DNA of 27,470 nt, taken from contig NIVC01005059.1 in NCBI GenBank assembly GCA_002269645.1, forward strand, positions 1 to 27,470. Direction: 5' to 3'. Shown one piece after another: positions 4,379 through 27,470 of this stretch. Below the pieces are notes generated by a model that was given only the letters and a program-made list of their open reading frames with translations, was not told the DNA's origin and did no database searches. The position numbers and the translations under genes were made by a program. Source of the DNA: Macrostomum lignano. Its lineage: Eukaryota. Numbering within the stretch: position 1 is the stretch's first letter; the number at the start of each line of letters is the position of its first letter.

Positions 4379-5446
4379 CTGTAACAGAGAGAAGTGGAGG
4401 TTGTTCGGTGAGACGGCGTGGCCCGAAAACAGCGTCGGACACCAGCGATCATGAGATGGGAGACAGGATTGAAAGGACGTTGCATGGGTATTTGTTATTA
4501 CCATTGACTTAACATAACTCCGCATATAATACAACTAACTCGGCACCCAGACACAAGTCTGTTGGGACAGAGTCCAGACCTCTAGCAATTGATTTAAATC
4601 AAAACGGGTCGTCCCCTAGAACTCGCACTACCACTTTTTCGGAATCTCGGCAAGACAGTACGTATGAAATGACTTAAAAGACGTAATAAAAATGTTCAGT
4701 ATTTTTCATTTATAGTGGTGCCAAAAAGCACGACAATAAAGACATTAAAAAAGCAGCTAGGAAAAAGATTGGAAAAGCTGTATGTGTTATAAGTAATACT
4801 TTAGAATATTATTAGTACTGTTAACGTATGTGGACGTTGTAGATGAAACTGACGTACGTGCTGCACTCGTTGATCCATGTTTACGGGGGAAACACGTGCC
4901 CGAGGGCCCTCCTAGTACTGTAGGAGATGAATTCGTGTTATAAAAATAGATACTGAGTCACACAACATTACGTACTTTCTTAGAGAACTCATGCCTTCAT
5001 TAAGTCAAGTAGGTGCACCGAATATGGTTCTAGTTCCCAAGGTATAATAGAGTTACACAGTATTACGTGCATTGGGGCAATTAGAATTCCCACGTATAAG
5101 TACGGACTCCTGGATCATTTTTCGCGACAAGAAGTTGTGTCTGGCCTTTCTAAGTGCACGCCTACTTCAAATTGCAAGTCGCACTGAACATGAAACAGTA
5201 AACCGTAAACGTTGAACAGAAAAAAACTGGAAAACTGAAATATGAAGCACACAAAGATGAATGGCAAAATGCCGGACGAAATTTCAAACGATTATCGTCC
5301 TGAATTAAAATAGCAGATCTGCTATGGGACGAAGTACTGTGTAAAAAAACAAACAAAAACAGTAAGTTCATTGTGCGAAAACAATTTATAGTATTAATCC
5401 GTTATGATCCGTTATCCTATAAAACTACTCAACGCCGACAGTCAGC

Positions 5447-7090: not shown

Positions 7091-7870
7091 TACTTTCCAA
7101 ATCAAGCAGACGACTGGAAAACGATTTTTAACAGCATATTTACTTCAAATATCGCATTGTACAATGTTTAAGAATAGAAAAGGACGCTCTCAAGATACGA
7201 TCCTAATTTCCACAAAATCTTACGTACACGCTAAAGTTAGATCTAAGGAATTTCGTTATAGGGAGAGTGGACGGCCAACCAATCGATGTGGTGAACTACA
7301 TGCTAGGTTCGATGCAACGTTGCAATCACGAAACACGAGACATAGTGTAATGATGGACGCAAAATGCGTGAATTTCGCATATTTACTGATTGGTGTATGA
7401 TACGAGGTCCGTTATGATTCATTTTAATGAAAAAATTAAAACGGCAGATTTCATACATATTTAAAGTGATTAAGATTCATTCACATTGTCGTCATAGTGG
7501 TTGTGGAAGTATACTGGTGTATAAACGAATGACCATTGGTGTAAAGATCGTGTAAACTTGTGAACCTTCGCCTTATTTAATGCCTGCGTGAATGAGTCTT
7601 ATAACGTTCATAGATAAAGTTGAAGGCGTTTATAAATAGGGTGGCAACATACAGTGGAACAGATTTTATCTCAGCAATGAGCGGTACTATACTTGACGTT
7701 ACAAAGACTGCTTAATCAGTTCGTACAAATTGTGGGGTATACGCAAACAAACGTTTGAGGTGACAGCTTACTTAAAATTGTCTTTTCCGCGAACTTATTA
7801 AGCAACGTCAATACATTACAATGGGCTTGGACAGTACAAGGAGCACACAGGCGTATAGGCCCGAGCAAAT

Positions 7871-10606
7871 TCACGAAAAAGATAGTTGCGCATGCGGCAG
7901 CGCTACTACATGCGTGTCGCTGACAGCACATGATCCCACAATCATTTTGATAGGAACACAAATAACATAGCCGCCAATGTCACCGAAGGGATCGCAAGCC
8001 AGCTTCCGGACGTGGATGAGTCGGCAACCTCGATTTGGCGCATCAACCGGAACGGCCACGAGCACTGATAGAGGATCCTCCATCGGTGCGGCCAGACGGA
8101 GCGGTTGCATCAGTAGATGTAGATCGCCTACATCCTCATCCTCTTCCAATTCGTAGACGCGACCAAAGTCTATCGCTGACCGACCAGCGTCAGTCCAGAC
8201 GGCAACAAAGCTGGAGACAACTCTTTCTGTGACATAGATTGTCTGAACACATCGATCATTGTGCCGTCATGCAATGTAACTCGCTCCCATTTACTCGGGT
8301 TTCCAGCATATCTTCTAGGTCGTGAAACTGTGCCACACCTGATGTTCTTCGTTGTCATGCGTCTGGCTACTGGCGTGTCAGTCAACTGAAGATCTTCAGT
8401 TGTCTTGTCCGCCAATTGTGCCACTAATAGCTCAGTTTGGATGACGTTCGCTATTTCTACGTCGGTCGCTCGCGAACCGCGTATGCGTTTACGAATACTA
8501 CAATGAAATGACTCGAACAGCGATGCTGATAACTGGTGTATTGGCCCTGCCAACACTGCGTGCATCAGGGTATGCACGCATACCTGATGAGCGTTATAAG
8601 TCAATGCCCGATTCGAGAACATCATCGGGAGTAGGCGATGGAAGTACGATAATGTCGTTCGCACATGTGTCAGCTCGCGGATCGAGGAACCAACGCATGA
8701 CAATGCGAACATTGCGGACGATAGAGCCAGCAGTAGCTGATAGTACCTGCCGTGATCATAGCATGCAAGGAAATCTTCCAGTACCATCGGACCGTAAGCT
8801 AACATCCACATTTCAAACTCGTGGCCCCGATACCTCTTCAATAGGTTTAGTGACCTTGGTCCGCGTCTCTGAACACTACGCGGCACTCGAATTCTTGCGA
8901 GCCGTTCATCAATCAGGCTAATCCGTCGGTACAAATCGGGGTTTCTCGACGTCTGGTCTGGCTTTTGATGTCGTATTAGGAACAACTGGTACATCAGATA
9001 GCCGGTCAGACCAGCACAGGTTTGGTGCAAATAACACGGCGGGCAACCCCTAATGTAGTCGAACCCGGCCAGTTCACTCAGTGGAGACTTGGCTCGCACT
9101 CCAAGCGTGTCTGTCTTGTCGTCAGTACGAGCCACGCGCATTCTGTCTCTTTCATATTCGTGCCGATCGGCAAGCATGTTAGTGTCGGTGACGCACCGAA
9201 ACTCTGTCTGTGTACACCCACGTCTGACAGCGGCGTTCAGCATAGCGTTGGTGATTTCGAGCGGAAACATACGTCCGGATCCAAACGGCTGTTTTTTTGT
9301 TCGAATATAACATTTTTCGCATCCGTATATCGCGTTGAATCGCTTCATACCTAGTGCATCCGCTCGTGCTGGGGCATCGAAGATGGCCTGGAAAGGGTGC
9401 AATCTAAGGATTTGCTTATCGCCGTGTCCGTCTACATATTGGTAGGAAACTTTCCGCATGCAATTTAACGTGTCCAGCCCAGACTCCGCATACAATCACG
9501 TACTTATACTTCATGCGTTCGTACACCTCTGTTACAGACATGTACACTGGACAGACCTCGACGTTACTGCTTTTCCGCAACGAAAATCCGTCTGAACATA
9601 GCGTGTACGACAGATCGCATCTACGTCGAGGTTCAATCGACGCTAGGAACTCCCTGTACAGTGCACTGTTGACGTAGTGTAACTGACGTCTAAACATGTC
9701 GTCTGACGGTTGATCAGCCGGCCACACAACAGTCTCCAGCATTCCGCGTCGGATGCAGCGCCGAAGTTGATCCTTTGCGTCACATAGCCAGAAGCTTGCA
9801 ACTTCTTCGCTACCGCAAGTTGAACACGTCGGCGCGTTTCGACCGAGTCGATTTTGTCTACACTTCGCACACACAGTGTAGCATTCTGAGGTCGGTAATG
9901 CAGATCTGCATTCTTGTCGAAAGCGAGCTTTCACAACCTCAGAAAGTACATGCGGCGACCGCGGCACATCAGCGCTAGGCATCAGTTTGCGTAATAAACC
10001 TAGTAGTTCTCTTTTCTGCTCTCTGCATGCTTTCCACTTGGAGCAGTAGTCCGCAATTAATGTGGCCGCTTCTCCTGTCGTTAGAAGCACATCCGCTTCG
10101 GCTATTTTATGAAATGGTCTGTCTATGAAAATAGGATCAGCTCTCGAACTGGCTGGATCGCTCTGGTCGGATGCGTCGCTGCCCTCCTCATTGAGGCTGG
10201 CTGGGTCGATCTGGTCGGATGCGTCGCTACCCTCTTCGTTGAGACTGGCTGGGTCGCTCTGGTCGGATGCGTCGCTGCCCTCCTCATTGAGGCTGGCTGG
10301 GTCGATCTGGTCGGATGCGTCGCTACCCTCTTCGTTGAGACTGGCTGGGTCGCTCTGGTCGGATGCGTCGCTGCCCTCCTCATTGAGGCTAGGGACCAGA
10401 GTGTTTGATGGCAGATCTGCCAGATTCGCGCGTTTGTCGCGTAATCGACGTTGCCGTAATGCTTGCATTCTCTGCTGGCCAGTCAATGCGGGTGCGGCCC
10501 TTTTACGTATGCCAAGCCGCCAATTTCTCATATAGTGCGTTGCATTGTGCGTTTCGTCCGTCTGTTCCGGCCCTGCAGACTGTGCTGAGGTGCCGGCCTT
10601 GTCCAT
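7871..10606 (-). pseudogene. EnSpm/CACTA (CMC superfamily) DDE transposase, about 910 aa, two frameshifts (~9445 and ~8240)
   Basis: Motifs: CxxC...CxxC, SDGFSLRKSS..VCPVY, FDAPARA..KRFNAIYGCEKC, HQTCAG, PRSLNLLKRYRGHEF, TYNAHQ, GPIHQLSASLFESFH. The C-terminus continues in a third frame to the stop at 7871. Confidence 0.85.
10151..10390. repeat. Coding minisatellite, 5 x 48 bp (SLNEEGSDASDQ(S/I)DPA)
   Basis: Five exact-length units alternating between two variants in the transposase N-terminus. Confidence 0.95.
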
Positions 10607-11318
10607 CCTGGAGAAGTCAGATTTCGACTGTTCTGTAACGAAACGGTATAATAATAATAATCGGAGGAACTACATGACATTCATGTATGCAATAGGTTTA
10701 GATGAATGTGTCAACTCTATATAGACGTGGGTAGCTATTCTAGATCACTACGGTATCCTACTTAAAATGAGGGGATCAATGACTTCTGCTACTACTACTG
10801 ATTATTGATTGTGATTGATTGATTAGTGATACTGATTGTTACTACATACGATTGTTCTAACATATGGGCGGATGAACGGTGACACTTGAATTTTTGCAAT
10901 AGAAACCATGACTAGATAGTTCAATGAAATGAATGCAAGGCAATGCAATCGGGATCTGTAATAAAACGGAAGCACACGTTTTCGTAAAAAACAAGTTAAG
11001 TAACAAGAGGTGGAATTTGCTTACTGGGAAATGCATAAAAGTCAATAATGAGATAGGATGGATACGAATAGTTAAAAGAAAACATAATTGCACAAATGTA
11101 ACGCGTAATAATGTCATATTAAAGTACTTAGGTTTCGATATGTTCTCCGTTTGTTGGCTGGCAGATTTGGCCTGCTAGATTGTTCATCTGCTGCTATAGC
11201 TACCAAACGGTGCTATATTCACTCTGCTTTTATCTTCACTCTGATGTAACGGCGCTCAACGGCGCTCAACTGCACTGTCCTCAGTTACTAATAAATGAAA
11301 AAAAGGTACGAAACTGCA

Positions 11319-11324
11319 AGCATC
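11319..11324. other. Candidate 6-bp target-site duplication (AGCATC)
   Basis: These six bases lie immediately 5' of AGTAG. Mavericks make 6-bp TSDs, but the right-hand copy lies outside the window and cannot be checked. Confidence 0.45.
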
Positions 11325-11369
11325 AGTAGAAGGCATGAGGGGGCTTCTGGGACAAAATTTTTCACCTCC

Positions 11370-11579
11370 TCCATAATCCCATTAAATCCATCCATATTAT
11401 CCCTGACAGAATCAGAAAAAAAGGGGGGTCGCACCTGCTCCAAAAACTTCGTCCATAATCCCATTAAATCCATCCATATTATCCCTGACAGAATCAGAAA
11501 AAAAGGGGGTCGCACTCGCTCACAAAACATCCTCCATAATCCCATTAAATCCATCCATATTATCCCTGACAGAATCAGA
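11370..11579. repeat. TIR-internal tandem repeats, 81-82 bp, 2 full copies plus a partial third
   Basis: TCCATAATCCCATTAAATCCATCCATATTATCCCTGACAGAATCAGA at 11370, 11452 and 11533; mirrored in the right TIR. Confidence 0.92.
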
Positions 11580-11631
11580 GCATAACAGGTGTCCTACTGT
11601 TATGCTCTGAGGGTTTATGCTCTGAGCATAA
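11575..11631. other. Nested palindromes in left TIR
   Basis: TCAGAGCATAACAG-8nt-CTGTTATGCTCTGA (perfect 14-bp stem, 11575-11610), followed by TTATGCTC-T-GAGCATAA. Confidence 0.85.
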
Positions 11632-11748
11632 CAGCTCCAAATCCACCCATAACATTTCTAAAACAATCAGAAAAATAATCTGCATTCTTCTCCCCACATT
11701 CAATTCGCAACGTGCTACCAGATCCCTAAGACTTTAAATCATCAGCGC

Positions 11749-11762
11749 AGGGTCCTCACCCT
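11749..11762 (+). promoter_or_regulatory. Palindromic AGGGT-N4-ACCCT motif upstream of left TIR ORF
   Basis: AGGGTCCTCACCCT, 26 nt before the ATG at 11789; the same motif occurs at 15919 and 26996. Regulatory role is inferred. Confidence 0.5.
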
Positions 11763-11788
11763 TTAAAAAAATTAAATTCTCAATAAAA

Positions 11789-12049
11789 ATGTTTCCAGTT
11801 GTCTCTCCAGGTTCCTATTATACTCAGCCTCATCCATTGTACAAATCCAAGTACCGATGCAAACTAGAATGCAGCGAGTACATGAGAAAATATTGGCCCG
11901 ATGTTGATATCAATGTCCCTAATATTAATCAAGCTCTCCAAAGACATTGGTTTCATAAGTATGGAGTAACCTACGTAACAGATTACGACAGCTACTATAA
12001 CTTTGCAGAAATCATTAGGCAGTTGAAGCTTACTAAAAAAACAGACTAA
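11789..12049 (+). CDS. TIR-encoded hypothetical protein, 86 aa (left copy)
   Basis: AAAAATG start context. The paralog in the right TIR shows synonymous differences, consistent with coding constraint. Confidence 0.7.
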   Translation: MFPVVSPGSYYTQPHPLYKSKYRCKLECSEYMRKYWPDVDINVPNINQALQRHWFHKYGVTYVTDYDSYYNFAEIIRQLKLTKKTD

Positions 12050-12125
12050 GTTCATTTATTCACAAGTATATTTACATAAAACAGGAGGAAATAAGGAGGA
12101 AAGAGCAGACACTGAGTGTGCAGGG

Positions 12126-12615
12126 CTATCCGGCCGAGAATTTCCTATTATTCGGATCCAGAAGAATATTGATTTTCCTCCCGCTCATTTCGTGTACAGC
12201 AAATCGTATATGGCAATAGCCCCATAATTCTGCCCGCTTGCCAGACTCTAGCAGCCCCGTCCGTTCCCGTCCATGGCTCCCGTCCCGTCCCTCTCTCCCT
12301 CTCTTGCTTGCCAGTGCCTCAATTGTAGCACAATAGAAGCTAGAACGCCCTTGCCTCTTGGACTTGGAGTTGTAAACTATAGATTTTCCTCCCGCTCATT
12401 TCGTGTACAGCAAATCGTATAGGGCAGAGTTCTTCCAGGGTTAATATAGATTTATACTTACTGGGTATACGAGAGCGTATTGTGTCTTTAACCGGTTCCA
12501 CCAGCTGCTGCCACATTCGCCGCCCCAGGGATAACAACGTTACCGTGTCAGTGTCGATCGCGCGGAAGCTACTGTATCTATTGTATAATACACTGAGAAA
12601 AATTTCTAGAGCCAT
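12126..12615 (-). CDS. Hypothetical protein, about 163 aa, with duplicated IRFAVHEMSGRKI motif (one frame break near 12372)
   Basis: The 12340..12615 ORF continues in another frame (..GRDGSHGRERTG..CHIRFAVHEMSGRKINILLDPNNRKFSAG*) to the stop at 12126. Confidence 0.45.
12171..12421. repeat. Perfect 40-bp direct repeat (12171-12210 and 12382-12421)
   Basis: GATTTTCCTCCCGCTCATTTCGTGTACAGCAAATCGTATA occurs twice, identically. Confidence 0.95.
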
Positions 12616-12782
12616 ATCTTAAAGTAGAGCTTAGTATTGAGCAGAGCTCTACCTACTAAAGAACTACTGATTCCCGATTCAGTATCCATATACGCGCTAA
12701 ATATTTTTTTAATCTGCAAGGTAATAATTATTAATATATTTGCTTATACTAGTTCTGCTTTTTTTCATTTACTTCACCTACA

Positions 12783-13421
12783 ATGTGTTTTAGAATTTCA
12801 ATGGACATAGCAATGCCTACATTTGAGGATGATTTGGTTGCTCTAGTAAGGAGGATGTGCGAGAGTGATGACATGAAGCAATCGAAGTATTGGATTGAGG
12901 AATTTAACAAAGTTGCGAGGCGATTCAATAAGTGTGTGATTAATCTACCATCTATCACTGGTAGGGTGGAAGGAATTGACGAACGAAAGAAGTTGGAGCA
13001 CATCAATGAGGCTGCGAACTTACTCCGTGATTCACTTGCTCGTGTCATTCCACAACCGGCTGTGGAATTTGTCTCTGGGAGGCATGACATTGCAGATGTT
13101 GTGAATGAGCTCAACAAAATTGACAAAATGATAAATGAACTACAAAATCAAGGACTTCAATACGGAATAAAGGCTGGAAAAATTCTGATCCGCATGAAGC
13201 TCGTACTGTCTGCTGAGGAATATAGAGCGTTTGCCATGAAGCTTCGATTTAAGCCGGTTTGGGGGAATTTCTTAATTCGGGTGGCAAGACTCAGCAACAC
13301 TCGCCCTATTCTAAATCGTTGTGGCATCTCGCTGTATCGACTGCGCTCAATAATTAAGTATGCCGATGAGGCATTGAAGATGCTAGAAGAAGAAGAAGAG
13401 GCCAGTGCACTCCTGGGTTAA
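12783..13421 (+). CDS. Hypothetical helical protein, up to 212 aa; C-terminal half DUF3102-like (tentative)
   Basis: Uninterrupted ORF. YGIKAGKILIRMKLVLSAEEYRAFAMKLRFKPVWGNFLIRVARL loosely resembles the DUF3102 pattern (IEIGxxLxxAK...W......A.NFMR.A). The true start may be a later ATG. Confidence 0.7.
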   Translation: MCFRISMDIAMPTFEDDLVALVRRMCESDDMKQSKYWIEEFNKVARRFNKCVINLPSITGRVEGIDERKKLEHINEAANLLRDSLARVIPQPAVEFVSGRHDIADVVNELNKIDKMINELQNQGLQYGIKAGKILIRMKLVLSAEEYRAFAMKLRFKPVWGNFLIRVARLSNTRPILNRCGISLYRLRSIIKYADEALKMLEEEEEASALLG

Positions 13422-13481
13422 CTAATCTGCTGTGACTAATGACTCTTGCTGCTATGACTCTTGCTTTTTCACATAAAAAAC

Positions 13482-13697
13482 TTTTCACACTGAATACTGC
13501 AGTATCTGCTGCTTTTCACATTGAATACTTTTCACATTGAATACTGCAGTATCTGCTGCTTTTCACATTGAATACTTTTCACATTGAATACTGCAGTATC
13601 TGCTGCTTTTCACATTGAATACTTTTCACACTGAATACTGCAGTATCTGCTGCTTTTCACATTGAATACTTTTCACATTGAATACTGCAGTATCTGC
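13482..13697. repeat. 47-bp tandem array (~4.6 copies), each with the palindrome ATACTGCAGTAT
   Basis: Units start at 13482, 13529, 13576, 13623 and 13670, between convergent genes. Confidence 0.95.
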
Positions 13698-13842
13698 GGC
13701 ACATTGAGTATAGGATAATGGTTGACAAGAAACAGCTGCCATATCCGTTCCGCTCAACACCCAACCACCACGCGGCAAAATGTCATAAGGAAAATATAGC
13801 CGCCTTTACAAGCTTTCTTTTCAACCGCTAGAGCCACTTGAA

Positions 13843-14307
13843 TCATTCTGCTCTCTCAACCCCCAGCTCTTTCAGCAGTCTTCCAAGTTCTTTACGTGGC
13901 GCGTGCAATATAAAGCCCACCTCTCTTCCCAAACACCCACCCTCGGCGTTAATTCCCAACCCCAATTTTGTCTTACCAAAAATAACAGCTTTAACTAGCT
14001 TCCGAGCGATCGATTCCTTCCACCCGCTTGAAGCCCCTATATTGTCTAGTCTCTTAAGCATTTCTTTGTCCCAGCGATTCTTCTCCTCAGGAAAATCTCT
14101 ATATTTAACATCGTGCCACATGCAGACAGAGTCTAGCTCGTTCACAGGCTCATGCCCAGGATGTGGATTATTGTTTTTATCTAACTGTATTTCAAGTGGA
14201 TTCAAAGGCCCGCAATATTTATAGCCGGGAAGTGTCCAGCCTTTGTTTGGATGAGGAAGCTTTTCTATCAGTCCATGTGAATCTATTTTACCACCAGAGC
14301 GCTGCAT
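13843..14307 (-). CDS. Parvovirus-type phospholipase A2 domain protein (PLA2X), about 154 aa
   Basis: TLPGYKYCGPLN calcium-binding loop and PVNELDSVCMWHDVKY catalytic HDxxY. Start set at MQRSGG (14307) because the longer ORF overlaps the integrase. Confidence 0.9.
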   Translation of the reverse strand: MQRSGGKIDSHGLIEKLPHPNKGWTLPGYKYCGPLNPLEIQLDKNNNPHPGHEPVNELDSVCMWHDVKYRDFPEEKNRWDKEMLKRLDNIGASSGWKESIARKLVKAVIFGKTKLGLGINAEGGCLGREVGFILHAPRKELGRLLKELGVERAE

Positions 14308-14337
14308 TATTTTATTTAAAATTTTCTTTTTAAATAA

Positions 14338-15374
14338 ATGACAGATCAGAAACTTAAAAAACTCTACTACAGCGACAAAGGATTCTTTGTAGGCAAAAAT
14401 GCCGTTAGTAAACTCATGGAGCTGAGTAAGGAACCAAAAGCTACAGTAGAAAAATGGCTCTCTAAGCAGGCTGTCTTTCAAATCTATTTCCCACCAGTAA
14501 AATTTGAAAGGCCCCATTTCAGTATTTATAAACCTAATGAGGCGCACCAAGCAGATCTTCTGTTTCTCCCCAATGACTCGGGCTACAAGTATGCTCTTAC
14601 AATTACAGACGTTGCTTCCAGATATAAGGAAGCTCGCCCACTCAAGACGAAGAAGTCAGAAGCAGTTGCAGCCGCCCTCCAAGATATTTATAAAAACTCA
14701 CCCCTTAGTTACCCTGAAATCTTTATGACAGACCCTGGTAAAGAATTCATGGGTGCAGTGAAATCACTTATGGAAAAGAAAAATACAGAGATTCGCTATG
14801 GCAGAACTGAGCTCCACAGAGATCAGGCTTTTGTGGAAAGATTCAATCTAACTCTAGCCAAGAGGCTATTCACTAAGCAGACAGCTGAAGAGCTGAAACT
14901 AAAAAGTGGCCAATACTACACCAAGTGGACAGACCGGCTCCCCACTGTTATAGAACAACTGAACAATGAAGTCACACGCATGACTGGATTGAAACCGTCC
15001 CATGCAATTAAACAAGACACTGTCGAACTTAAGTCATCTCATAAAACAGACAACAACACGACAACCCCACACAACACACACAACACAAAGCACACCTCGA
15101 ACTACCCTAAGCTTCCAGGAGTTGAATCACCATACATACTGACAAACTCTGAGTTTCTACGCTTTTTATATCTACCTGGAGAGCTAGAGAAAGACACCAA
15201 AAGAAGAGCTACAGATCCATACTTCAGCCTTGATGTACATAAAATAGACAGACATTTTACCTCCGACTCCGGTGACTATTACTTTTTATCTCAGGCCTTT
15301 AACCCTAAATCCCCACACGGTCATTCACTAGAGCTGAACTCCTAGTGATACCAGCTGACACAGAAATTAATTAA
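14338..15374 (+). CDS. Retroviral-type (rve) integrase, about 345 aa; one frameshift at ~15315
   Basis: HQADLLFLP, LTITDVASRY, TDPGKEF, QAFVERFN (D,D,E). Adding one C to the run at ~15315 gives the C-terminus TRSFTRAELLVIPADTEIN*. Confidence 0.95.
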
Positions 15375-15390
15375 AATATTAAAATAAAAA

Positions 15391-15837
15391 ATGACAAAGA
15401 TTGAAACCAGAACCATCAATAAACTCAATAAAATCATTGAATCAAAGAAACCAGGTCTTATATCAATTAAAGGTATCAAAGTAAAAATCGATCCCACGCA
15501 GCAAATAGTTCAGTGTAATGAACAAAGACACAGCATCACAGATGAAAAGTCAGGAGGAATCCTACCATTAGCAGCTCTTATTCCGATCATTGCAGGCGCT
15601 GTAAGTGCCGCAGGTGGTGTAGCTGGAGGTGTAGCAACTGCTGTTAAAGCTGGGAATGATAGAGCCCACCAGCTAGAATTGCAAAAGATTGCAAGAGACA
15701 AAGGTATAACAATTAAGGCAGGAGAGGGCTGCCCTGATCCTGATGATTGTGAGCATGAAAATTCTGTAAGCAAGTCTGACATTGTCAAAGCCATCATGAC
15801 ATTGCACAATGCTGGGTTTACAATAATGCGTATGTGA
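15391..15837 (+). CDS. Small virion protein with adenovirus pX-like GG/ILP hydrophobic segment, 148 aa
   Basis: KSGGILPLAALIPIIAGAVSAAGGVAGGVATAV resembles the adenovirus pX C-terminus as I recall it (MRGGILPLLIPLIAAAIGAVPGIA). AAAAAATG start. Confidence 0.75.
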   Translation: MTKIETRTINKLNKIIESKKPGLISIKGIKVKIDPTQQIVQCNEQRHSITDEKSGGILPLAALIPIIAGAVSAAGGVAGGVATAVKAGNDRAHQLELQKIARDKGITIKAGEGCPDPDDCEHENSVSKSDIVKAIMTLHNAGFTIMRM

Positions 15838-15918
15838 TGAGGTTTAAAACCCCACTTTATCCAGCTTCATAAACCTAACGCTACTTATAGGATGTAGAAA
15901 CAGTTCAACTTTTCTATC

Positions 15919-15932
15919 AGGGTGGTCACCCT
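15919..15932 (+). promoter_or_regulatory. Palindromic AGGGT-N4-ACCCT motif upstream of pPolB
   Basis: AGGGTGGTCACCCT, 28 nt before the ATG at 15961. Regulatory role is inferred. Confidence 0.5.
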
Positions 15933-15960
15933 CAAAATTTTTTTTATATTTTCGAGAAAA

Positions 15961-18900
15961 ATGCCAAAAGCCAATCCAGCAAGAGATTTAGTCAACAAAT
16001 ATTTTTCGTCTCATTTACCCTACCCTACAACCTTACAAGGCGTCTCATTTCAAGACAAAAGTAATTCACTAAGAGAAGCATGCAAACAAAAGTTCAACAC
16101 CGACCCTGGTCACCTGGGAAGCTATGAAAAACAGTTGGAAATCATCAATCAATTAGAATCAAACCAGTATGCGCCTATAAAAAATTCTGCAAAGGAACAC
16201 CAAGAGAGGAGTCGCAACTTAGTTAACAAATATGAAACTCTCACTGGTGAAAAAGCAAAGTACCCACAAAATAAGCAGGAACAAGAGAAATTAGAGCAAT
16301 TAATCCATTTAAAAGAGTCGGAGCTTGCCACTGAAGAGATTAATTTTGCACAGACGAAGTTTACAGAACATTACATAGAGTACACAATCCCAATAAACGG
16401 CACCAACGGTACCACCGCAAACATCTACGACTATAAAGACAGCATCCAATCAGTTGTTGATCACACACTCAAAACACGCAAGACTTTAAACTACAGATAT
16501 CATTCAAGATTGCGTTTTATATGCCTGCGAAACCCACTGAGCATCTCGAGTATTACATGACAACAAAGGCAAAGCCATTCACCCCAACAGACACACTGGA
16601 TCCTTTCCTTCAAGATGTCAATAAGAAAATTGAAGCGTTTACATCCAGAGGTTCCGGATGGGTCGTGGGAGGGATTCAAAGAGCGACTGTCATGGTCATG
16701 AAATATGACCCACTTAAAGCCTCCTCTTATATAGAGCTCCCGCATAAGCTAGCCGGTAAAAAAGCTTGCATAAATGTTAAAAATAAAGACAATTGCTGTG
16801 CTCTATGGGCAGTTCTTTCTGCACTTTTTAGTGTACCTCACCACCCCGAAAGAACCTCAAATTATCAAAATTATTTCAACTACTATCTCATCGAATGCGA
16901 AAAGAAGGGAATCAGGTTTGACAAAGGAGGCTTGGCGATCTCTCAGATCCCAAAGCTAGAAGAAGTGTTTAATAACAAAATTAGAATCACAGTCTTTGAG
17001 TGGAGTGAAAAAACTGAGAAAGTTCAACCGGTCAGATGTAGCAAAGACGTTTTAGATCCGAGGGGAAAAGGCGGACTGAAGTGGATCTTCTAGTGATTGG
17101 TAATTTACTAGAGGAGGCTCACTATGTTTGGATTAAAGATCTTTCAAGACTCATTCACAAGCAGTTGAATAATCATCACGAGGCTGTTGCCATCTGCCGC
17201 TTGTGCCTTAAGCATTACAGTGGACCTGAACGCTTTGAAAAGCTAACAGAGCATGAATTATCATGCGAGGATCACCCGACAAACTGCTCTCTTCCTTCAG
17301 CTGAAGAGAAGTATCTCCGTTTAAGAACTATCACAAGATGGAGAAGCTCCCATTTGTTGTATATGCTGATTTCGAATGCTCAATCATGCCGGAAACTCAA
17401 AAACAAACTCAAACTCAAAAACATGTCCCCAATTCAGTAGCATATGCCTTTATTAATACAAAAGGACTTGTTGAGTATAATTATTTCTTTGGAGAGCAGT
17501 GTGTGGAGCAGTTTATTGCCAGAATGTTAGAGTTGCAAAAAGTGATTAGCACCCTTCAACCTGTTCCAATAATGATGACTGAGGAGGATGAAAGCAATTT
17601 CCTATCAGCAACTCATTGCCACATCTGCAGGAAACATTTAACTTGCACTAATATTAAAAACCCCACCGTTAGGGACCACTGCCACTTTACTGGGAAATTT
17701 AGAGGTGCAGCGCATAACACCTGTAATCTAAAGCTAAAATCGAACATTCATGATCTAACGATATTTTGTCACAACGCAAAGAACTATGACATGCATTTAA
17801 TAGTTGAAAAAATCGGCATGATTCCAGACATACACCTTGATTGCATCGCAGAGAACAAGGAGAAGTTTAAGTGTGTTGATATTAAACAGGATAATTCGGG
17901 TACAGGTAAAATAAGACTGAAGGATTCATATCAATTTCTAGCTGCCAGTCTAGACGAACTAAGCAAGAATCTAAAAGATGAACAATGTACATATACAAAG
18001 ATGTTTGCAAGTAAAATTAACAACACTGATGAATCATTTAAACTCCTGAGAACCAAAGGCTTCTACCCCTATGAAAATATTACTGGGTATCACGTATTTG
18101 AAGAAGGTTTACCACCACAGGAGAAGTTCTTTTCAAAGCTAACAGACTCTGGAATCTCTGACAAAGACTATGAGCACGCGAAGCATGTCTATAATTACTT
18201 TAATTGTCAAAACTTCTTCCAGTATCACCTGCTTTACCTCTTCACAGATGTGTTTCTGCTGGCTGATGTGTTTGAAACCTTCAGATACACCTGGTACACA
18301 GCATATGGCCTCGATCCAGCACATTATGTGTCTCTGCCTGCCACTAGCTGGGAATCTTTGCTTAAAATGAAATGGGATCAAGATCCAGATTGGTACATTG
18401 AACTTCTTACAGACATTGACATGTACAATTTTGTCGAATCGTCAAAGCGAGGGGGAATCTCAATTTGTGTTAACAGGTATGCAAAAGCAAACAATCCCTA
18501 CATTGAATCTTACAATAAGGAGCAGCCCTCAAACTACATTACTTACTTGGACGCTAATAATCTCTACGGGTGGGCGATGAGTCAAGATCTTCCAGTTAGA
18601 GATTTTCGATGGCTACCCTCATCAGAATTAAATGGGACTTTTCATTGGCTGCCATTTATGAGGTTGATGTTTACATTCCACCAGAGCTTCACGACTATTT
18701 CTCTGACTTTCCACCCTTCCCAGAGAACATCAAGTGCCCGAAAATAATCGAAACTCCCAATGATAATAATGGAACTTGGCACCTGTCAGGAACAGAAAAA
18801 GAACATACAGAGAAACTAACACAGAATCTAAACAACAAGACACGTTACAAAATCCATTACAAACTGCTTCAGTATTTTATCTCACTTGGTTGCAGGGTCA

Positions 18901-19828
18901 CCAAAGTTCACAGGGCTCTTACATTTACAGAGGAAGCGTGGATGAAACCCTACATTGATAAGAACACCCAGTTTAGGACCAAAGCAACCAACGACTTTGA
19001 CAAGAACCTCTTTAAGTTGGCCAACAACTCTGTCTATGGCAAGACTCTTGAGAATGAGCGGAAAAGAACAAACCTGAAACTTGTTACCTCATCAGAGCCT
19101 GCTGTTATTCAGGCAAATATGTCAAAGCCAACATTCAAAGAACTCCATATCTTTAATAGCTACTTAGGTGTGATCATATTTTACAAAACCAAGGTGACGC
19201 TGCGCAAGCCGATCTATACAGGTGTCACTGTTCTCGACGAATCAAAACGTCTGATGTACCAGTTCTTCTATGGCATGAAGCAGCAGTACAAGGATAAAAT
19301 GAAACTCTTGTACACTGACACAGACAGTTTTATTATGGACATTCAAACAGAAGACATTTATCAGGACATGCTGCAGCAAAAAGATTTGTTTGACTTGTCT
19401 GAGTATGATGAATCTTGCAGGACGCTGAATGGCGATCAAGTGTTTGACGCCACTAACAAGAAAGTGATTGGGAAAATGAAGGACGAGATTGCTGGTGACA
19501 TAATCACTGAATTCATTGGGTTGAGAGCAAAGTCCTATTTTATAAAATGTGAGTCGTCAGACCCAATAAAAAATCAAAGGGAATTCCGAAACGTGTGGTT
19601 AGGAAGGAAATTAATGAAGCTGAATACAGAGACGCCTTGAATTGCAACAAAAAGACATCACATGAGTTCTCAAAGCTACAATCTAAAAACCATATTATTC
19701 ACACAATTCAGCAAAAGAAGATTGGACTGTCAGGTGCAGATAACAAGAGATTCATTTTTGATGACAATATCAACAGTCTACCGTTCGGGCATTGGAGGTT
19801 AGGTTTAGGAGGTGGATATTGGGTTTAG
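15961..19828 (+). CDS. polB: Protein-primed family B DNA polymerase (pPolB), about 1290 aa after repairing 5 single-base frameshifts
   Basis: GSGW, DPLKASSYIELP, NKDNCCALW, HYVWIKDLSRL, FVVYADFE (ExoI), HNAKNYDMH (ExoII), KGFYPYE, YLFTDVFLLADVFE (ExoIII), YLDANNLYGWAM (A), KLANNSVYGK (B), YTDTDS (C), GKMKDE. Breaks at ~16515, 17080, 17320, 18630 and 19577; 3868+5=3873 nt is a multiple of 3. Confidence 0.97.
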
Positions 19829-19861
19829 GTTTGAGAGAAAGTTTAATAAACCTCATAAAAA

Positions 19862-20262
19862 ATGACAACAAATAACTTTCTTGAAGATTTGGCTAACGAA
19901 CTGGAAATCCCAAACTTTAGAGGAATATTTATGAGGGACACTCTGCCTGATTTTCCTCTAAGAAAGAATGCGGCATCATGAACTTTGACACCACCGATAA
20001 GCCAGGATCTCATTGGGTTTGCTGGGTGATTGATCCCGATCGCAAGCACAAGTGTTATTACTTCGATAGCTATGGGACGGCAGTACCAGAAGAGCTAAGA
20101 AATTATATGAAGGGAAAAAATAATAAAAAAATTTATCGCTCAGACTTTATTCTCCAAGGTCTTAGCAGTGATATTTGCGGTGAGCTGTGCATGACTGTTT
20201 TGTATGCAATGACCAAAACACGAAAGACCTACAAGGAAATTATTCTTGGCTGTGTTTCATAG
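19862..20262 (+). CDS. Adenain-like cysteine protease (maturation protease), about 133 aa; one frameshift at ~19960
   Basis: FRGIFMRD, GSHW (His), YFDSYG (Asp), ILQ (Gln), ICGELC (Cys). Confidence 0.93.
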
Positions 20263-20265
20263 GGT

Positions 20266-20977
20266 TCATTGTGCATTTCTCGTTGTACTTCTCGTTGTCC
20301 TTCTTTCCACATAATGTTGAAGAACTTTCTCGAGTTCATTTCTCAGCTGACTCATGTCATCAGTACCGACCATGTTCAAGTTCATTCGAATTGATTGTTC
20401 ATAAAGATCCTGAATGGTTTTGAACTCATCCTCTGAAATGAACTTATCCTCGATTGCCCTTGAAATGTACCCTATGATTGAAGTGTGCACCCCTTTCTCT
20501 TTTACTTGCTTCTCCTGTAGCTGCTTTAGTTTTTTTCGCCTGTTTCGCGCTAATGCTCCAGTAATTGCTGAAATAAGTCCACATGCAGCACCCACAGAGC
20601 CGAGCGGGATTGCGATTGGGGCTGTGATGACTGGCAACACTGAGACAGCTGCAGCAGATCCAGATAGAACAGACACAGATCCTAGAATCATATTGCTGTA
20701 GTCGAAAAATTTACAGTGGTTGTCATAGCGCTTAATTTTCTTTGTGTTGTGGAAAATATTTTTTTCAAGATCATCGCGCATTTTTTGAATCTCCACCAGT
20801 CGAAACTGTGAGAGTTACAAGTAATGACGGGGTAGAGTTTTTGTTGCTCATATTGGGTGCATTCAGATTCGGTGCCAGGTTTTGTGTGTTCGAATTCGGT
20901 GCCATTGAGTTTGGTGCTGTCGGTATTTTAGGTTCAACGTATTGAGACTGATCGTATAGAGAATTTTGTTGGGCCAT
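20266..20977 (-). CDS. Conserved Maverick membrane-associated protein (GasderminX-like), frameshifted near 20810-20850
   Basis: LYP/FRL N-terminal motifs, a two-helix hydrophobic stretch (LGSVSVLSGSAAAVSVLPVITAPIAIPLGSVGAACGLISAITGAL), then ISRAIEDKFISEDEF. AAAAAAATG start at 20977. Confidence 0.7.
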
Positions 20978-21068
20978 TTTTTTCTCTAGAAAAAATAAAA
21001 AAATTATAAAACTATCCGGTTGAAAGATCTGTTTTCTTTTTGATAATTCCATCTGCACCGCCGGTTGT

Positions 21069-21886
21069 CTAGGCGGCTCTCGTGACGCCGGAGGATCGCG
21101 AGTCCAGCAGGCAGCGGCTGGGCGGCTGACGTTTGAGAGCGTGCCGGATTACTCCGGCGGGGTCCAGAGCTCCTTCTACTCGATCTGTAGACATGACCGG
21201 ACGAGCAGCAGATTCTGCTTCATCAATAGCAATGTCACGAAGATTGAGTGTTCTCTCCAGACGATCAAGCCTCCTTATTATTTTACCCCAAGAGCTATAC
21301 ATTCCGTTTAGATAGCTACTGTGTGATACATCCTTTCTCTTTAATGCTTCAAGTCTTTCTTTGATTCGATCATGCAACGATGTTGACTGAGTCATGAACT
21401 CTTCTAAATTATTGACTTTACTGTGTTGGTTGCGACGTTTTCTTTAATTCTATCATGCAACGCTGTTGACTGGTTCATGAACTCTTCTAAATTATTTACT
21501 TTAGCTGTGTTTGTGAAAACTCCTCCTTCAAGAATACGCATCCGTCTATCAGTGGAATTTCCCAGAAGATTAACTGATGATCTCAAGCCGTTGATTAGCG
21601 AGACTATCGAAGTTATTTCTGACCTAAGTTCATTAGTTGCGTTTAACAACGGCACATAAAGCTTATCACTTTCAAACTTCTGCCTAGCTACTTTAAGCCT
21701 GAGATCTTCCATGTTTATTTGCAACTGGTGCATGGAGCGCTCTAGGGCTTTCAGTCTGTTTTTATTCAGTTTGATCTCTGGGATCTTTTCGTCGCTGTTG
21801 ATATATCGCCTGTCAAGGATGGATATCTGAGCTGATGTAAGAGCGCTGTTGCCAGAAATGGATTCACCTGCAAAGTTTATCGACAT
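21069..21886 (-). CDS. Coiled-coil protein, about 272 aa, with internal 28-aa repeat; one frameshift at ~21417
   Basis: KVNNLEEFM(N/T)QST(A/S)LHDRIKE occurs twice; adding one A joins 21404..21886 and 21069..21395 (818+1=819 nt). Confidence 0.75.
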
Positions 21887-21902
21887 CTTTTAATAGCAAA
21901 TT

Positions 21903-22701
21903 TTAAATTACAGTTCTTTTTTCTTTGCTGATAATCACAAACTGGTAAGGCTGATTCCACTTGTCATAGCAAAGATTAACGAATTCCTCTTGTGAAATCT
22001 TTCTGCTTGAGTTTTTTGTTGGATTTATGAAATAGGCAGGCGCAATGACCTCATTGTAAAATCTTTTTAACCTGTCCTGTGGAATGGTTGGAAACAGGAG
22101 AATCAGATTGCAGTTCCCACGAATTGTTTTGTTCGGGAGCTCGAACCAGTTCTGTGCAATGTAAATTACATTACAATTGTTATGTCGCCCTCTTGTAAAA
22201 TAGTTTTCTATCTGCTTCTGTGGGCCTGTCATACAATCATCAAAGACGATCAAATGCTTTCTCCCCTTTTCTAGCTCATCTGGTTGGGGTAGAAGTTTGG
22301 TCTTTGGATCAGCCTGTGGATCTCCATAGGTGAACACTTTAATGTTCTGCCATTTTTCATTGTCTTTGAGGTGCTTTGCATATTCGGCAGCTACAATTTC
22401 AGGGTTACTGGGAAGGCTCATTTGGTTATTAAAACATGCAATAATGTCCTCTTTGTTCAGTTGTTTTGAAGCCAGCAATCAGCATTCTATACTCATCTTG
22501 ATACAGTGTGGGAGAGTAGATGTGCAGAGTGTCATAGTCGATAAAGCCAGGTCTAAGAAGCATGTTAAAGACTCTGAATGTTTTACCTGAACCTGATGAA
22601 CCAACAACAATGCATCTGAAGTGACTCGGGATTGACTCATGATGAGAAAACTTAATCTGATTACGCGTCCAGTGAGGATTGAAGTCGTTTGAAAAGTCCA
22701 T
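21903..22701 (-). CDS. A32/FtsK-like genome packaging ATPase, about 266 aa; frame break at ~22465
   Basis: Walker A GSSGSGKT, Walker B LIVFDD, RGRH arginine finger, IYIAQ sensor. AAAAAATG start at MDFS. Confidence 0.93.
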
Positions 22702-22739
22702 TTTTTCTATGATGAAAAAAAATTTAAATAATAAATAAT

Positions 22740-22928
22740 TTAGATGTGTCATTTCGGGACTTAGATGTGTCATTTTGGGACTTAGATGTGTCATTTTGGG
22801 ACTTAGATGTGTCATTTTGGGACTTAGATGTGTCATTTTGGGACTTAGATGTGTCATTTTGGGACTTAGATGTGTCATTTTGGGACTTAGATGTGTCATT
22901 TTGGGACTTAGATGTGTCATTTTGAGAC
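22740..22928. repeat. 21-bp tandem array, 9 copies (TTAGATGTGTCATTTTGGGAC)
   Basis: 189 bp = 9 x 21, immediately upstream of the ATPase start. Confidence 0.97.
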
Positions 22929-23012
22929 TAGTCTTGTACCTTTACATTTCTTGTACCCTCGGAAAGTACCTTTAGTCAAATTTGAAACCACTTCCTTTTT
23001 TAATGCTTGCTC

Positions 23013-23354
23013 TCATCTTCTCATAGACTGCAGGGTCCACACTGTCTGGGTTTGGGGCCAGCGGGGCCAGCGGGCCAGAGGTTGAATCTCTTGTTTAGGT
23101 GTTACAGTATCCTTTATCTTTTTGGCTGCTGTGGCTACACTGCCAGCCGCTTCGGCAACGTTCTTGATGTTCTCTTTGTTCTCTCCAATGACCTTAAAAA
23201 TCTTGGCCCCCTGAGCGATCAAATCGGCAAGGCCATTCCCGAGCGTCTTTTCTTGGATAGTGGCCTGCAGGGAAAAGTCCAGATCCGCGTTTAATAGATT
23301 AAGTTCCTCTTTGTCATAGTATTTGTCAATGTCTTTTTCGAAAATAAGTGGCAT
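23013..23354 (-). CDS. Small protein, about 113 aa, with GNG followed by an amphipathic helix (putative membrane-lytic virion protein)
   Basis: Own AAAAATG start at 23354; LGNG/LADLIAQGAKIFKVIGENKENIKNVAEAAGSVATAAKKI. The C-terminus may be frameshifted. Confidence 0.55.
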   Translation of the reverse strand: MPLIFEKDIDKYYDKEELNLLNADLDFSLQATIQEKTLGNGLADLIAQGAKIFKVIGENKENIKNVAEAAGSVATAAKKIKDTVTPKQEIQPLARWPRWPQTQTVWTLQSMRR

Positions 23355-23389
23355 TTTTACTTGAAATAAATTATTTTTTGTTGAACCGC

Positions 23390-24524
23390 GAAAGCAGAAG
23401 CTCTCTCGCCCTTTATCGATGTATTTTCTCTCAAGCATTTTGTCCAGGATGTTGACAAATTCTTTTCTATTCTCATCTTTCATTCCGGTCTTTGCCGCTC
23501 CTAGAAGAACCGCTACTCGCTTGTAGATTTCAGCTATTCCTTTTCCAGATTGGGGCGGTTGGTCTTGGGGTTGTGGAGTTGGTTGGGCTTGTGGCTGCTG
23601 GGGAGGTGATCAAAAGACTGCTCACTTTCAGAGATGGAACTGTCATGTGGCGCCTGTCTTTGTTGAGGTGTGAAAACTCTTTGCTTGATTCTGTTCATTC
23701 GATCTGGAGAGTGTTGTTCTAAGTGTTGCCAGTCTGTTGGGTGATCATTTTTATATTCAGCTACTTGAGTCGGATCTGCATTTTCCAGTTGCCTGAGTAC
23801 TTGTTCTTCTGTGAAATGTTGCTGCTGTTGTGGCGGTTGTGTTGTTGCTGTTGTGTTGTTGTTGTTGTCTTATGACTTTCCTGATCTGGCAAACCAACCA
23901 TTGTTTAAAGTATTGTACTTTTTGAATCTAGTCAGGTTGACACCGTTATTCATAAATTTCAACTTCCGTTGTTTAGTATTTCTATATCTCTATCAAGAGC
24001 AAAAGTCACTAGATCTCTTGTAATTTTTGAGCTGTTTTTAGAGATTCTCTAGGTTCTTGGTCATAATCAGTAAGGTTTGTGAAAGGATTCTTAGTTTCGA
24101 GCCTTTGACAACAGAAATGTTTTCCTTATTTATGTCGATATAATATTCCACTGGTTCATTATAAATTTTTTTCGCCAGGCTTATTCCAAATATATTTCCC
24201 ATCATGTTCGACACGCTCTACTGGTCCAAAAATGTTATCTGTCACTTTTAGTTGCTGGTTGTTGGTTCCTGTTGTGGTTGCGGCTGGTGGTGGGAATTTT
24301 GCCCAAAACCTTTTGCACTTGGGTTTCCTGTATGTCGTCGATAGTTTCTTTGACCTGATCAATATTTTTCTTAGCTTCTCCATACCCGGGCTTTGAAACT
24401 CTGTGGCTGCTTGGACAAACTCATTGTAGGATTGTTGCTCCTTATTTATTAGCCCGGTAACTCGTTTCTCTGCTTGTGCTAGCTTCTCCAATTCAGATAT
24501 CTGCTGTGTACTTTTTCGCTTCAT
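23390..24524 (-). CDS. Conserved Maverick protein of unknown function, multiply frameshifted; 3' end approximate
   Basis: Starts at 24524, has Q/T-rich low-complexity tracts, and ends with KGIAEIYKRVAVLLGAAKTG...EFVNILDKMLERKYI. That tail resembles the RLxLLxAxxxAGN...E...I.D.L C-terminal motif I recall from polinton proteins. Confidence 0.55.
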
Positions 24525-24554
24525 TTCTTATTTTATTTTATTTTTAGTTAAAAA

Positions 24555-25838
24555 ATGAACGACCCACTGACACCAGTTTTCTACAAAATTAACAAGCCTA
24601 TTTTGAGTGATGATAGCACAATCAAAGCGACTCAGGTAAGAGTTCCCAGTCAGGAAAATCAGAATGAAACTAATCTTGGTCCTGGCCAAACACTGACATT
24701 TACATACAATGGATGTTCGTCTTTGGTTAGTGTGCACAGTCTTAAGAGCGGCTTCCATATGACATTTCAATTCAAGACAAAGGGTGGTGCGGATGCGGCT
24801 CGTGCTAACGTTGACAAGCATGATGCGGATGTGGCTCTGATCAGTAACTTTTGGGCGTACATGTTCAAGGAGTTTAGTGTATCGAATGGGAGCACTGAGT
24901 TGGAGCGAATCGCCAACTTTGGAATTGTCTATGACGCTCATTGTTTGATCGAGAATCCTGATTTTATTCAGTTGGGAAGTGGTGCGGGTTTTATCGCAGA
25001 TGAAAAAGAAGGAGACACAATGACAGTGGCTATAAAAAGAGGAAGAAGAGATACAACTATGCATTGCAAGGTGCAGATGATGCTGCTAAAACCCGCTGTA
25101 TCGGTCTGTTGATGTATTTGTACCACTGAGATTCATGAGTGGATTCTGTAATACATTTAATCGACTGACTAGTAACTTTAGCTACACCTTTAGGATGACT
25201 AGAGATGATCGCAGTAGAGTGTTGTGGACTGGGGCGGACACACAAGGATGGAGGTGAAGCTAACCGGAATCGAGCTGTATTTGGAAGTCATTGAGCCAAA
25301 GACTGCACTAAAAGCGGATTATCTTAAGGCAATAGAGAAGGACATTGATGTTGCATACACGGCCTACATGTGTCGAGATGAGCGAAACGAAACTAGAACA
25401 AACATCTGCATTAAAGAGGGATCATGCAGCAATCCACGGTATATTATTATTAACATGAGAAACCCAAATAGCATTATACGCTACATGCATGGAGACGTGC
25501 GGTCCATTCAGCATGAAATCAGTGATAATCTTTACCCTGCACTGCCACAAAATGGAGATTTCAGTCAGAACAAGATTAGCAAATTTTACAGCGAGTTGGT
25601 CGACTTGGCTGTGAAAGAGAACAATGGAATTGCTATCACTGCTCTTCAATATGGAACTCTATATCCAATGTTTGGCGCTGATGTGTCTGCCAGACAAATG
25701 CCTACTGATAACAGCCCTGTGAATATCGTGACTAACATTGAGAGGACTGTCGCAACACCCGTGGACCTGTACATTATCTATGCATTTGAGAGGAAGGTGA
25801 AGCTTAACATGATCAACAATTCATCCAGTAAAGTTTAA
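24555..25838 (+). CDS. Major capsid protein (double jelly-roll), about 428 aa after repairing 3 single-base frameshifts
   Basis: SDDSTIK; NDSGYKKRK and VPLRFMSGFC in the repaired middle frames; YIIYAFERKVKL C-terminus. Size and position next to the mCP fit. Breaks at ~25020, 25105 and 25245. Confidence 0.85.
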
Positions 25839-25862
25839 ATATTTTTTTTGTGGGTGAAAAAA

Positions 25863-26724
25863 ATGGAAGCTATAGCCGAAAGACTAAACAATATTATTTC
25901 GCACTCAAGGAGAGCATTCCTATTACAATAACTGGGCGAATTAATGACTCAAACGGGATATTTGTTCAAAAATTAGAGCAGGCGATTAGCCTGGATCCAG
26001 GTGCTAATTACCATGTCTATCTTAACGACTTCACTGGTTGGTCAAACGTTCCCAATGTGACGGCAGCAAATAATAAGTTTTATTACAAATGGAAAGGTGC
26101 AGCAGCAGAACCTGTGGTATTCCCTGTGAGCACGCAAAGTGTGGATACCTACAATTACTTTCTAGAAAACGTCTTTACTAAAAGAGGCCATTTTGAGACA
26201 CCTGATATGAGTAAGCCAGAGAAGAAACTGTTCCCTGTTAAACTAACCTATGATCTCACTGTAATGAGAGTGGTCATGCAAGTTCACAAAGATGCGGAGG
26301 TTGAGTTTAAAGATGACACTTGGTATAGGGAATTGGGATTCGTGAAGAAAGTTTATAAGGCAGAATCCACAGCGCGGACTGTCACTCAAGCATCGGGGGC
26401 CGTTAGCATGGCCCGGGAAAGTGTACGCGGTTTGTTCTTAGCACCCAATATAGCAGACATTGTAAAGGGTTTGAATATTCTAATCAGAACTAATCTCAGT
26501 CTTGATTGGGTATTTAAGGGAAAGCGAACTAATATTTTGTACAACATCTCCAACTCTGTAGCTGGAGGACAGATGGTGGTAGAGAAACCAAATCCAGTGA
26601 AAAGAGTTGTATTGAGTAATAAGGAGATTCACGAGATTGTGCTTCAGTTTGAGACTGAAGATGGGATGGGCGTTGATTTAATGGGGAAGAGTTTGTATTG
26701 ACGTTAATCATTGAGAGAATGTAG
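25863..26724 (+). CDS. Minor capsid protein (penton, single jelly-roll), about 287 aa after repairing 2 frameshifts
   Basis: ISLDP..YHVYL, WSNVPNVTAANNKFYY, ILIRTNL, ILY, EKPNP, FETEDG.VDLMGEEFVLTLII. Confidence 0.88.
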
Positions 26725-26727
26725 AAA

Positions 26728-26967
26728 TCACAATTGCCTAATGATTTCTGCAAAGTTATAGTAGCTGTCGTAATCTTTTACGTAGGTTACTCCATACTTA
26801 TGAAACCAGTGTCTTTGGAGAGCTAGATTAATATTAGGGACATTGATATCAACGTCGGGCCAATATTTTCTCATGTACTCGCTGCATTCTAGTTTGCATC
26901 GGTACTTACTCTTGTAATTAGGCTCGTGCGCTTTGTAATAAGAACCTGGAGAGACAACTGGAAACAT
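26728..26967 (-). CDS. TIR-encoded hypothetical protein, 79 aa (right copy)
   Basis: Paralog of 11789..12049; AAAAATG start. Confidence 0.7.
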   Translation of the reverse strand: MFPVVSPGSYYKAHEPNYKSKYRCKLECSEYMRKYWPDVDINVPNINLALQRHWFHKYGVTYVKDYDSYYNFAEIIRQL

Positions 26968-27470
26968 TTTTAGAGAAATTTAATTTTTTTTTCAAAGGGT
27001 AAGGACCCTGGGTTAGGGGATTTAAAGTCTTTAGGGATCTGGTTTCATGTTGCGAATTGAATGTGGGGAGAAGAATGCAGATTTTTTCTGATTGTTTCGA
27101 AGATGCTATGGTGGATGTCAGTGGATTATGTCATGTGTCATGAGCATAACAGGTTCAGTGACCATATTCCTATTCTGTCAGTCATAATATGATGGATTTA
27201 ATGGGATTAAAGTTTTGAGCTGCCCTTTTCATGATTCTTCAGGGATAATATGGATGGATTTAATGGATTATGGAGGACGTTTTGTGAGCGGTGCGACCCC
27301 CTTTTTTCTGATTCTGTCAGGGATAATATGGATGGATTTAGGTGGATTATGGAGACGTTTTGTAGCGAGTGCGACCCCCCTTTTTTCTGATTCTGTCAGG
27401 GATAATATGGATGGATTTATGGATTATGGAGGAGGTGAAAATTTTGTCCAGAAGCCCCCTCATGCCTTCT
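26731..27470 (-). repeat. Right terminal inverted repeat (~740 bp, last 3 nt beyond window)
   Basis: Reverse complement of the left TIR, with shortened homopolymers, an extra partial internal repeat and diverged patches. Confidence 0.93.
26996..27009 (-). promoter_or_regulatory. Palindromic AGGGT-N4-ACCCT motif upstream of right TIR ORF
   Basis: AGGGTCCTTACCCT on the minus strand, 28 nt before the ATG at 26967. Regulatory role is inferred. Confidence 0.5.

Follow-up and report, generated by a model that had tools for sequence, protein, structure and literature searches.

Broken genes in a putatively complete Maverick from Macrostomum lignano: sequence errors as the probable cause of most frame breaks

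When the core genes of an endogenous virus are interrupted by frame breaks, is the element dead, or has a complete element been misread? The question is raised by a stretch of 27,470 nucleotides from Macrostomum lignano (contig NIVC01005059.1 of assembly GCA_002269645.1), hereafter the window. Judged from its sequence, the part that starts at position 11,325 and extends to the end of the window is a full-length, structurally complete Maverick/Polinton, i.e., an adintovirus-type endogenous DNA virus, of 16.1 kb with about 40% G+C and flanked by terminal inverted repeats (TIRs) of about 700 nt. We think it probable that most of its frame breaks are sequence errors laid over a complete element. 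The claim that no gene of this copy is broken is more tentative, possible and somewhat doubtful, and the copy is unlikely to be active or to form virions. The breaks would be base-loss errors, densest at the end of the sequence, in a long-read consensus that had low depth or was poorly polished. What favours this reading is the asymmetry of losses at that end, the lack of stops, and the phase shared by the referenced breaks, and not their association with homopolymer runs.

The first argument concerns the number and direction of the breaks. A preliminary description had counted about 15 of them, and the minimum number of frame changes, together with alignments to relatives, indeed gives 15 lost bases at 14 sites. 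The fewest frame changes are five in the protein-primed family B polymerase (pPolB, 15,961-19,828, + strand), two in the candidate minor capsid (penton) gene (25,863-26,724, +), and one each in the adenain-type cysteine protease (19,862-20,262, +), the retroviral-like integrase (14,338-15,374, +, near the 3' end), and a coiled-coil gene with an internal two-copy repeat (21,069-21,886, -). Alignment to relatives places three breaks in the major capsid protein (MCP) gene (24,555-25,838, +) and one site, where all eight comparisons give a net loss of two bases, in the A32-like packaging ATPase (21,903-22,701, -). Full-length relatives were available to check eight sites (four of them in pPolB, three in MCP, and one in the ATPase); the fifth pPolB site is spanned by one of the six relatives aligned, and the others, including those of the integrase, protease, and candidate minor capsid, rest on overlapping open frames or on the internal repeat. 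A loss of bases fits every referenced site. The pPolB frames, set against 63 full-length relatives, step 3, 2, 1, 3, 2 and thus keep a constant direction; with relatives at 42-44% identity this fixes the phase alone, and some of the six distant ones scored a +2 or a -2/+1 pair. In MCP and the ATPase, the size is fixed as a loss by relatives at 64-97% identity: in frame-aware alignments, the unnamed close relatives P0121 (MCP), P0123 (an MCP piece), and P0155-P0162 (ATPase) are open across the sites that are broken in the window copy. The sister P0123 stays in frame over the first two MCP breaks, with 109 of 112 residues identical. P0123 itself has lost a large internal part, which suggests that the family includes non-autonomous copies. 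For the genes lacking a reference, "all losses" is only one way to read the breaks, since a single gain is equivalent to two losses.

The second argument is the state of the frames between the breaks. They had been described as free of premature stops and as retaining their catalytic residues, and both statements hold for what was checked. With an X at each break, there are no in-frame stops in the 1,753 codons of pPolB, MCP, and ATPase. Every pattern tested was found: all ten motifs of pPolB (seven of seven, in a gene that lies in pieces) and of the ATPase (Walker A, Walker B, and RGRH), the D, D, E patterns of the integrase at residues 71-170, and the H-D-Q-C pattern of the protease. These patterns occur in 34-62 of the 63 pPolB relatives and in 7-8 of the eight ATPases. 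The ATPase differs at 4 of the 133 columns that are invariant in its eight relatives, a share inside the 0-8.8% that those relatives show in a leave-one-out comparison.

The third argument, which is stronger than any from homopolymer runs, comes from the two TIRs. The left one (11,325-12,025, +) starts with 5'-AG and contains internal repeats of 81-82 nt; the right one (26,731-27,470, -) stops with the window 3 nt before the mirror image of the left end, so that the right junction, like the second copy of the target site, falls outside the window. We infer that the window end is also the contig end. In the terminal block (the last 233 nt, non-coding), each of the ten gaps is the loss of a single base from the right arm, and the left arm has none (two-sided p=0.002); eight of the ten lie within runs of at least two. 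Because decay after insertion should strike both arms equally, this 10:0 asymmetry favours a consensus built on few noisy reads at a contig end. The density of losses is 0.44/kb left of 15.1 kb (2 in 4,594 checked nt), 1.65/kb from 15.1 to 27.0 kb (10 in 6,068), and 42.9/kb in the last 233 nt, the last step alone being significant. Outside the Maverick, similar losses occur in a flanking transposase gene (a single base near 8.2 kb) and in a 103-bp tandem array (1,971-2,529, 5.4 copies, one of them a base short), and we count them for sequence errors. The shortening of runs that had been described for the right TIR therefore stands for its terminal block but not for the rest: in the middle block, six of the eight gaps shorten the left arm (one of them an alignment-end gap), alongside 13 substitutions, and the inner block has no gaps and five substitutions in 173 nt (about 3%).

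Overall, the TIR arms are 83% identical by column, with unrelated patches. Each carries a short open reading frame (ORF), of 86 amino acids on the left (11,789-12,049, +) and of 79 on the right (26,728-26,967, -); these are diverged versions of each other, which keep the frame across a diverged patch and match no family above the Pfam cut-off. Had the divergence of the inner TIR block arisen after insertion, the checked genes should have gained about 3.6 stops (P of none 0.026), and since none was found such a build-up is unlikely. It is more likely that the difference between the arms is native to the family, or that the sequence joins two sister insertions. We also considered TIR divergence as an age clock and rejected it: in both arms the frame stays open over the diverged patch, and the difference between them may be native or due to chimerism.

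Several observations weigh against sequence errors over a whole element. The first is the context of the breaks. Each had been said to be repaired within a homopolymer run, which is true only in part. Nine sites (eight in the Maverick, one in the flank) could be located to within 4-47 nt, the first MCP interval being blurred by the second break, and eight of these nine intervals touch a run of at least three; as the expectation in this sequence is 36-97%, the result is near chance (combined p=0.12). Moreover, one break lies off any run: in the coiled-coil gene, the single base by which the two repeat copies differ is not part of a run in the longer copy. The second is the uneven distribution of the losses. 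The step in density from left to middle falls short of significance (p=0.055 by length, 0.13 by runs) and its groups were drawn post hoc, and neither the inner right TIR block nor a non-coding 21-bp tandem array directly upstream of the ATPase gene (22,740-22,929, nine copies, none shortened) has any loss, although both lie in the break-rich half. The third is that the list of breaks was incomplete. The tally holds for the genes listed, but further breaks had been missed in three places: at least one frame change is required in an accessory gene with a hydrophobic segment (20,266-20,977, -, no Pfam family); near 23.07 kb, one copy of a 9-nt tandem unit is only 8 nt long; and the 1.2 kb from 23,358 to 24,524 need at least six frame changes if they are one gene, which leaves the stretch of 23.4-24.5 kb more broken than the capsid genes nearer the right end. 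Fourth, of 221 conserved columns pPolB deviates at 30, the worst result of 41, in a comparison confounded by its being an outgroup at 42-44% identity. Fifth, a loss of about 44 nt in the flanking transposase, near 9.4 kb, looks genomic. Sixth, the description of the element as young is not supported, since the arms differ by substitutions and by unrelated patches. Finally, residual errors of long-read consensus are reported to be mostly homopolymer indels that outlast polishing in repeats (PMC8812927), which speaks for errors, but one nanopore study reports that polishing adds more insertions than deletions (PMC7500977), and loss-only errors are thus not universal. The run-length spectrum of the window was also inspected: long A/T runs are not scarce in the Maverick and those of 7-9 exceed expectation, which leaves a wholesale collapse of runs unsupported.

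The explanation that competes best with sequence errors is early real decay, in which a dead copy has gathered slippage deletions since its insertion while other copies of the family stay whole. The premise that decay gives mixed indels, on which it had been set aside, was too strong. In mutation-accumulation lines of Caenorhabditis elegans, deletions are reported to outnumber insertions 3:1, mostly as single bases in runs, with about 2.7 substitutions per indel (10.1101/529214). Under this deletion-biased, run-associated germline spectrum, nine losses in nine have P=0.075 and the absence of stops has P=0.25, neither of which is extreme. Decay would also accommodate the difference between the TIR arms, and it did occur nearby and in the family: the genomic-looking loss in the flanking transposase argues for real decay at the locus, and the internal deletion of P0123 for decayed family members. 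According to PMC8097293, 96% of vertebrate Maverick loci are eroded. Yet the joint probability is 0.019 even with so favourable a spectrum, from which the host's own may differ, and if there were 8 substitutions per indel, the absence of stops would by itself have P=0.016. The stops expected from the inner-TIR divergence are missing, and the 10:0 losses in one arm, at 43/kb, are left unexplained. We consider early decay unlikely.

A chimeric or collapsed consensus would be a different kind of artefact: reads of several sister copies would have been merged, with arms from different insertions, so that no genomic copy has this sequence. It would make sense of arms that are 83% identical with unrelated patches, of the inner difference of about 3%, which resembles the 97% protein identity of the sister, and of a sequence that ends almost exactly at the end of the Maverick; false consensus of near-identical copies has also been reported to yield frameshifts (PMC10120064). 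However, the left junction with the flanking DNA is clean, there is a single collinear gene set, and merging alone would not produce breaks that are only losses; we consider a chimera improbable. Programmed frameshifting or RNA editing across the breaks, to which the one phase common to all referenced breaks might point, is hardly credible, because each full-length relative (63 for pPolB, two for MCP, eight for the ATPase) has its gene in one open frame, and because losses of this kind are also seen in tandem arrays and in non-coding TIR DNA.

If most breaks are sequence errors, what do they interrupt? A Pfam scan of 35 ORFs gave, within the Maverick, matches to the rve integrase, family B polymerase, adenain protease, parvovirus-type PLA2, and adenovirus protein-X, with the A32 ATPase below the cut-off. 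The first of these along the element is a PLA2-like gene at 13,843-14,307 (-; PF08398, E=1e-13), which has the His-Asp pair and is 40% identical to P0006. It is followed by the integrase (PF00665, E=3e-9), and then by an unbroken gene with a protein-X-like segment (15,391-15,837, +; PF05829, E=5e-7). The pPolB (PF03175, E=6e-11) has 5,671 relatives with E<=1e-20 among 7,999 scored, the best at about 45% identity over most of its largest piece. Its nearest named match is the PolB of a Corynactis coral adintovirus (P0026; 38% over 92% of the largest piece, E=2e-97), with whose N-terminal part the second piece also aligns (36%). The protease match is above the cut-off (PF00770, E=4e-5), and that of the ATPase, below it (PF04665, E=0.003), is backed by eight PF04665-bearing relatives at 58-74% identity.

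The capsid genes were identified less directly. A PDB sequence search with the window's own MCP piece gave no matches. Its relative P0121 (423 amino acids, full length, 72% identical to the window MCP) matches PF21738 (E=2e-7), and the structure model of P0121 (predicted local distance difference test, pLDDT, 83.7) matches the double-jelly-roll capsid proteins of Sputnik and PBCV-1 in Foldseek (E=2e-16). By way of this relative, the MCP gene encodes a predicted double-jelly-roll capsid protein. A scan of prokaryote genomes for the capsid gene gave 276 pattern matches, none of which was confirmed. The gene after MCP is a candidate minor capsid by its position and feature matches: its ESM feature score to viral clusters is 0.97, with DUF5901 in 14-15% of their members, which we treat as a lead only; it has no Pfam match and its single-sequence model is unusable (pLDDT 29.9).

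The remaining features are an unbroken putative ORF of 212 amino acids (12,783-13,421, +, no Pfam family), a non-coding 47-bp tandem array in which every copy is full length (13,466-13,697), and a fragmented accessory stretch of one or more genes (23,013-24,524, -), for which no reference was found and which is possibly the PZ-type gene. A 49-nt direct repeat lies in non-coding Maverick DNA (12,167-12,215 and 12,378-12,426). An Rfam search gave no matches. None of ten window proteins was present in an exact-sequence look-up in the protein collection, and the named database matches of the window proteins come from corals, molluscs, ants, and one flatworm at about 40% identity; by these comparisons, the Maverick belongs to a divergent lineage with few close relatives on record. 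As predicted from sequence, its gene content is coding potential only. The description of the copy as probably intact is partly supported, by a structurally complete element and by breaks for which errors are favoured, but is weakened by the fragmentation at 23.4-24.5 kb, the imperfect arms, and the unconfirmed minor capsid.

The DNA to the left of the Maverick contains a large transposase-like gene (7,871-10,669, -), 37-43% identical to P0153 and to the Macrostomum lignano protein P0154, with a coding repeat of five 48-bp units; it resembles transposases of the EnSpm/CACTA types. No convincing terminal repeats were found for the ends of this transposon. A G+C-rich block at 2,900-7,150 (-) contains four more ORFs on the same strand, with a match to the HROB OB-fold (PF15072, E=4e-9) at 3,866-4,534, and is probably cargo of the transposon. 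Further left, an ORF with a helix-turn-helix (1,251-1,751, -; HTH_32, E=5e-4, below the cut-off) is possibly a Tc1/IS630-like remnant and adjoins an (AG)42 tract (1,114-1,197). The hexamer at 11,319-11,324 is a candidate left copy of the 6-bp target-site duplication; it occurs six times in the window and is no proof alone.

The Maverick would thus have inserted beside or into another transposon in an invertebrate-like genome, and may lie in the upstream part of that transposon. In this family, the integrase inserts the genome with a 6-bp duplication, the protein-primed polymerase copies the linear genome from origins borne by the TIRs, and its packaging into a particle would fall to the ATPase, protease, and jelly-roll proteins. 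PLA2 and protein-X are reported to provide entry and core functions (PMC8502044).

How does this copy compare with known systems? Its length and TIRs are within the ranges reported for intact vertebrate Mavericks (12.7-24.6 kb and 46-1,447 bp), and like them it has pPolB, integrase, ATPase, protease, and capsid genes with no sign of introns (PMC8097293). It differs from those described there in that its left end lacks the full (AG)3 or (AGT)2 motif, its arms are imperfect, and PZ and other conserved ORFs were not recognised. That study reports 134 intact Mavericks in 17 vertebrate species and defines them by eight conserved uninterrupted ORFs, a definition that excludes the window sequence as given, with its at least 14 broken sites. 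The adintoviruses of PMC8502044 share with it the adenain, rve integrase, FtsK/A32 ATPase, hexon, PLA2, and protein-X modules, but PLA2 and protein-X are fused there as PLA2X, whereas here they are separate genes on opposite strands that flank the integrase. That source also describes an OTU-like domain at the N-terminus of adintovirus PolB, and characterises the Alpha class by a strong pfam03175 PolB together with the fused PLA2X. In the window, the PF03175 match is weak and on one piece only, and the copy may belong to either the Alpha or the Beta class. In protist assemblies, the fragmentation of endogenous polinton-like viruses has been ascribed to assembly or polishing error (PMC10120064); in that study the artefact was tested with reads, whereas in the window it is read from the break pattern alone. 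Intact Mavericks and endogenous viruses broken by artefacts are therefore already on record in these sources, and the assembly-artefact point was made for protist elements; the window copy is a divergent addition.

The strongest form of the error reading would have every break an error in an endogenous polintovirus of a divergent invertebrate lineage that is whole and replicating at present, the sequence stopping where the ends of free linear genomes dominate the reads, and the TIR arms natively unequal, each encoding a variant of one small protein. We regard this conjunction as improbable. If it were true, the unequal arms would mean that the ends here escaped the homogenisation expected of them. 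As of 2021, particles of animal Mavericks were reported as unobserved (PMC8097293), and PMC8502044, where it touches on the matter, refers to nothing beyond unpublished co-purification data for insect adintovirus genomes; such particles could be sought in a host whose copy is whole and expressed. Beyond this element, the locus illustrates a check that can be made without reads, from the phase of the breaks, the count of stops, and the asymmetry between TIR arms. Censuses that score Mavericks as dead by frameshift, such as the 96% given in PMC8097293, hinge on the quality of the assemblies.

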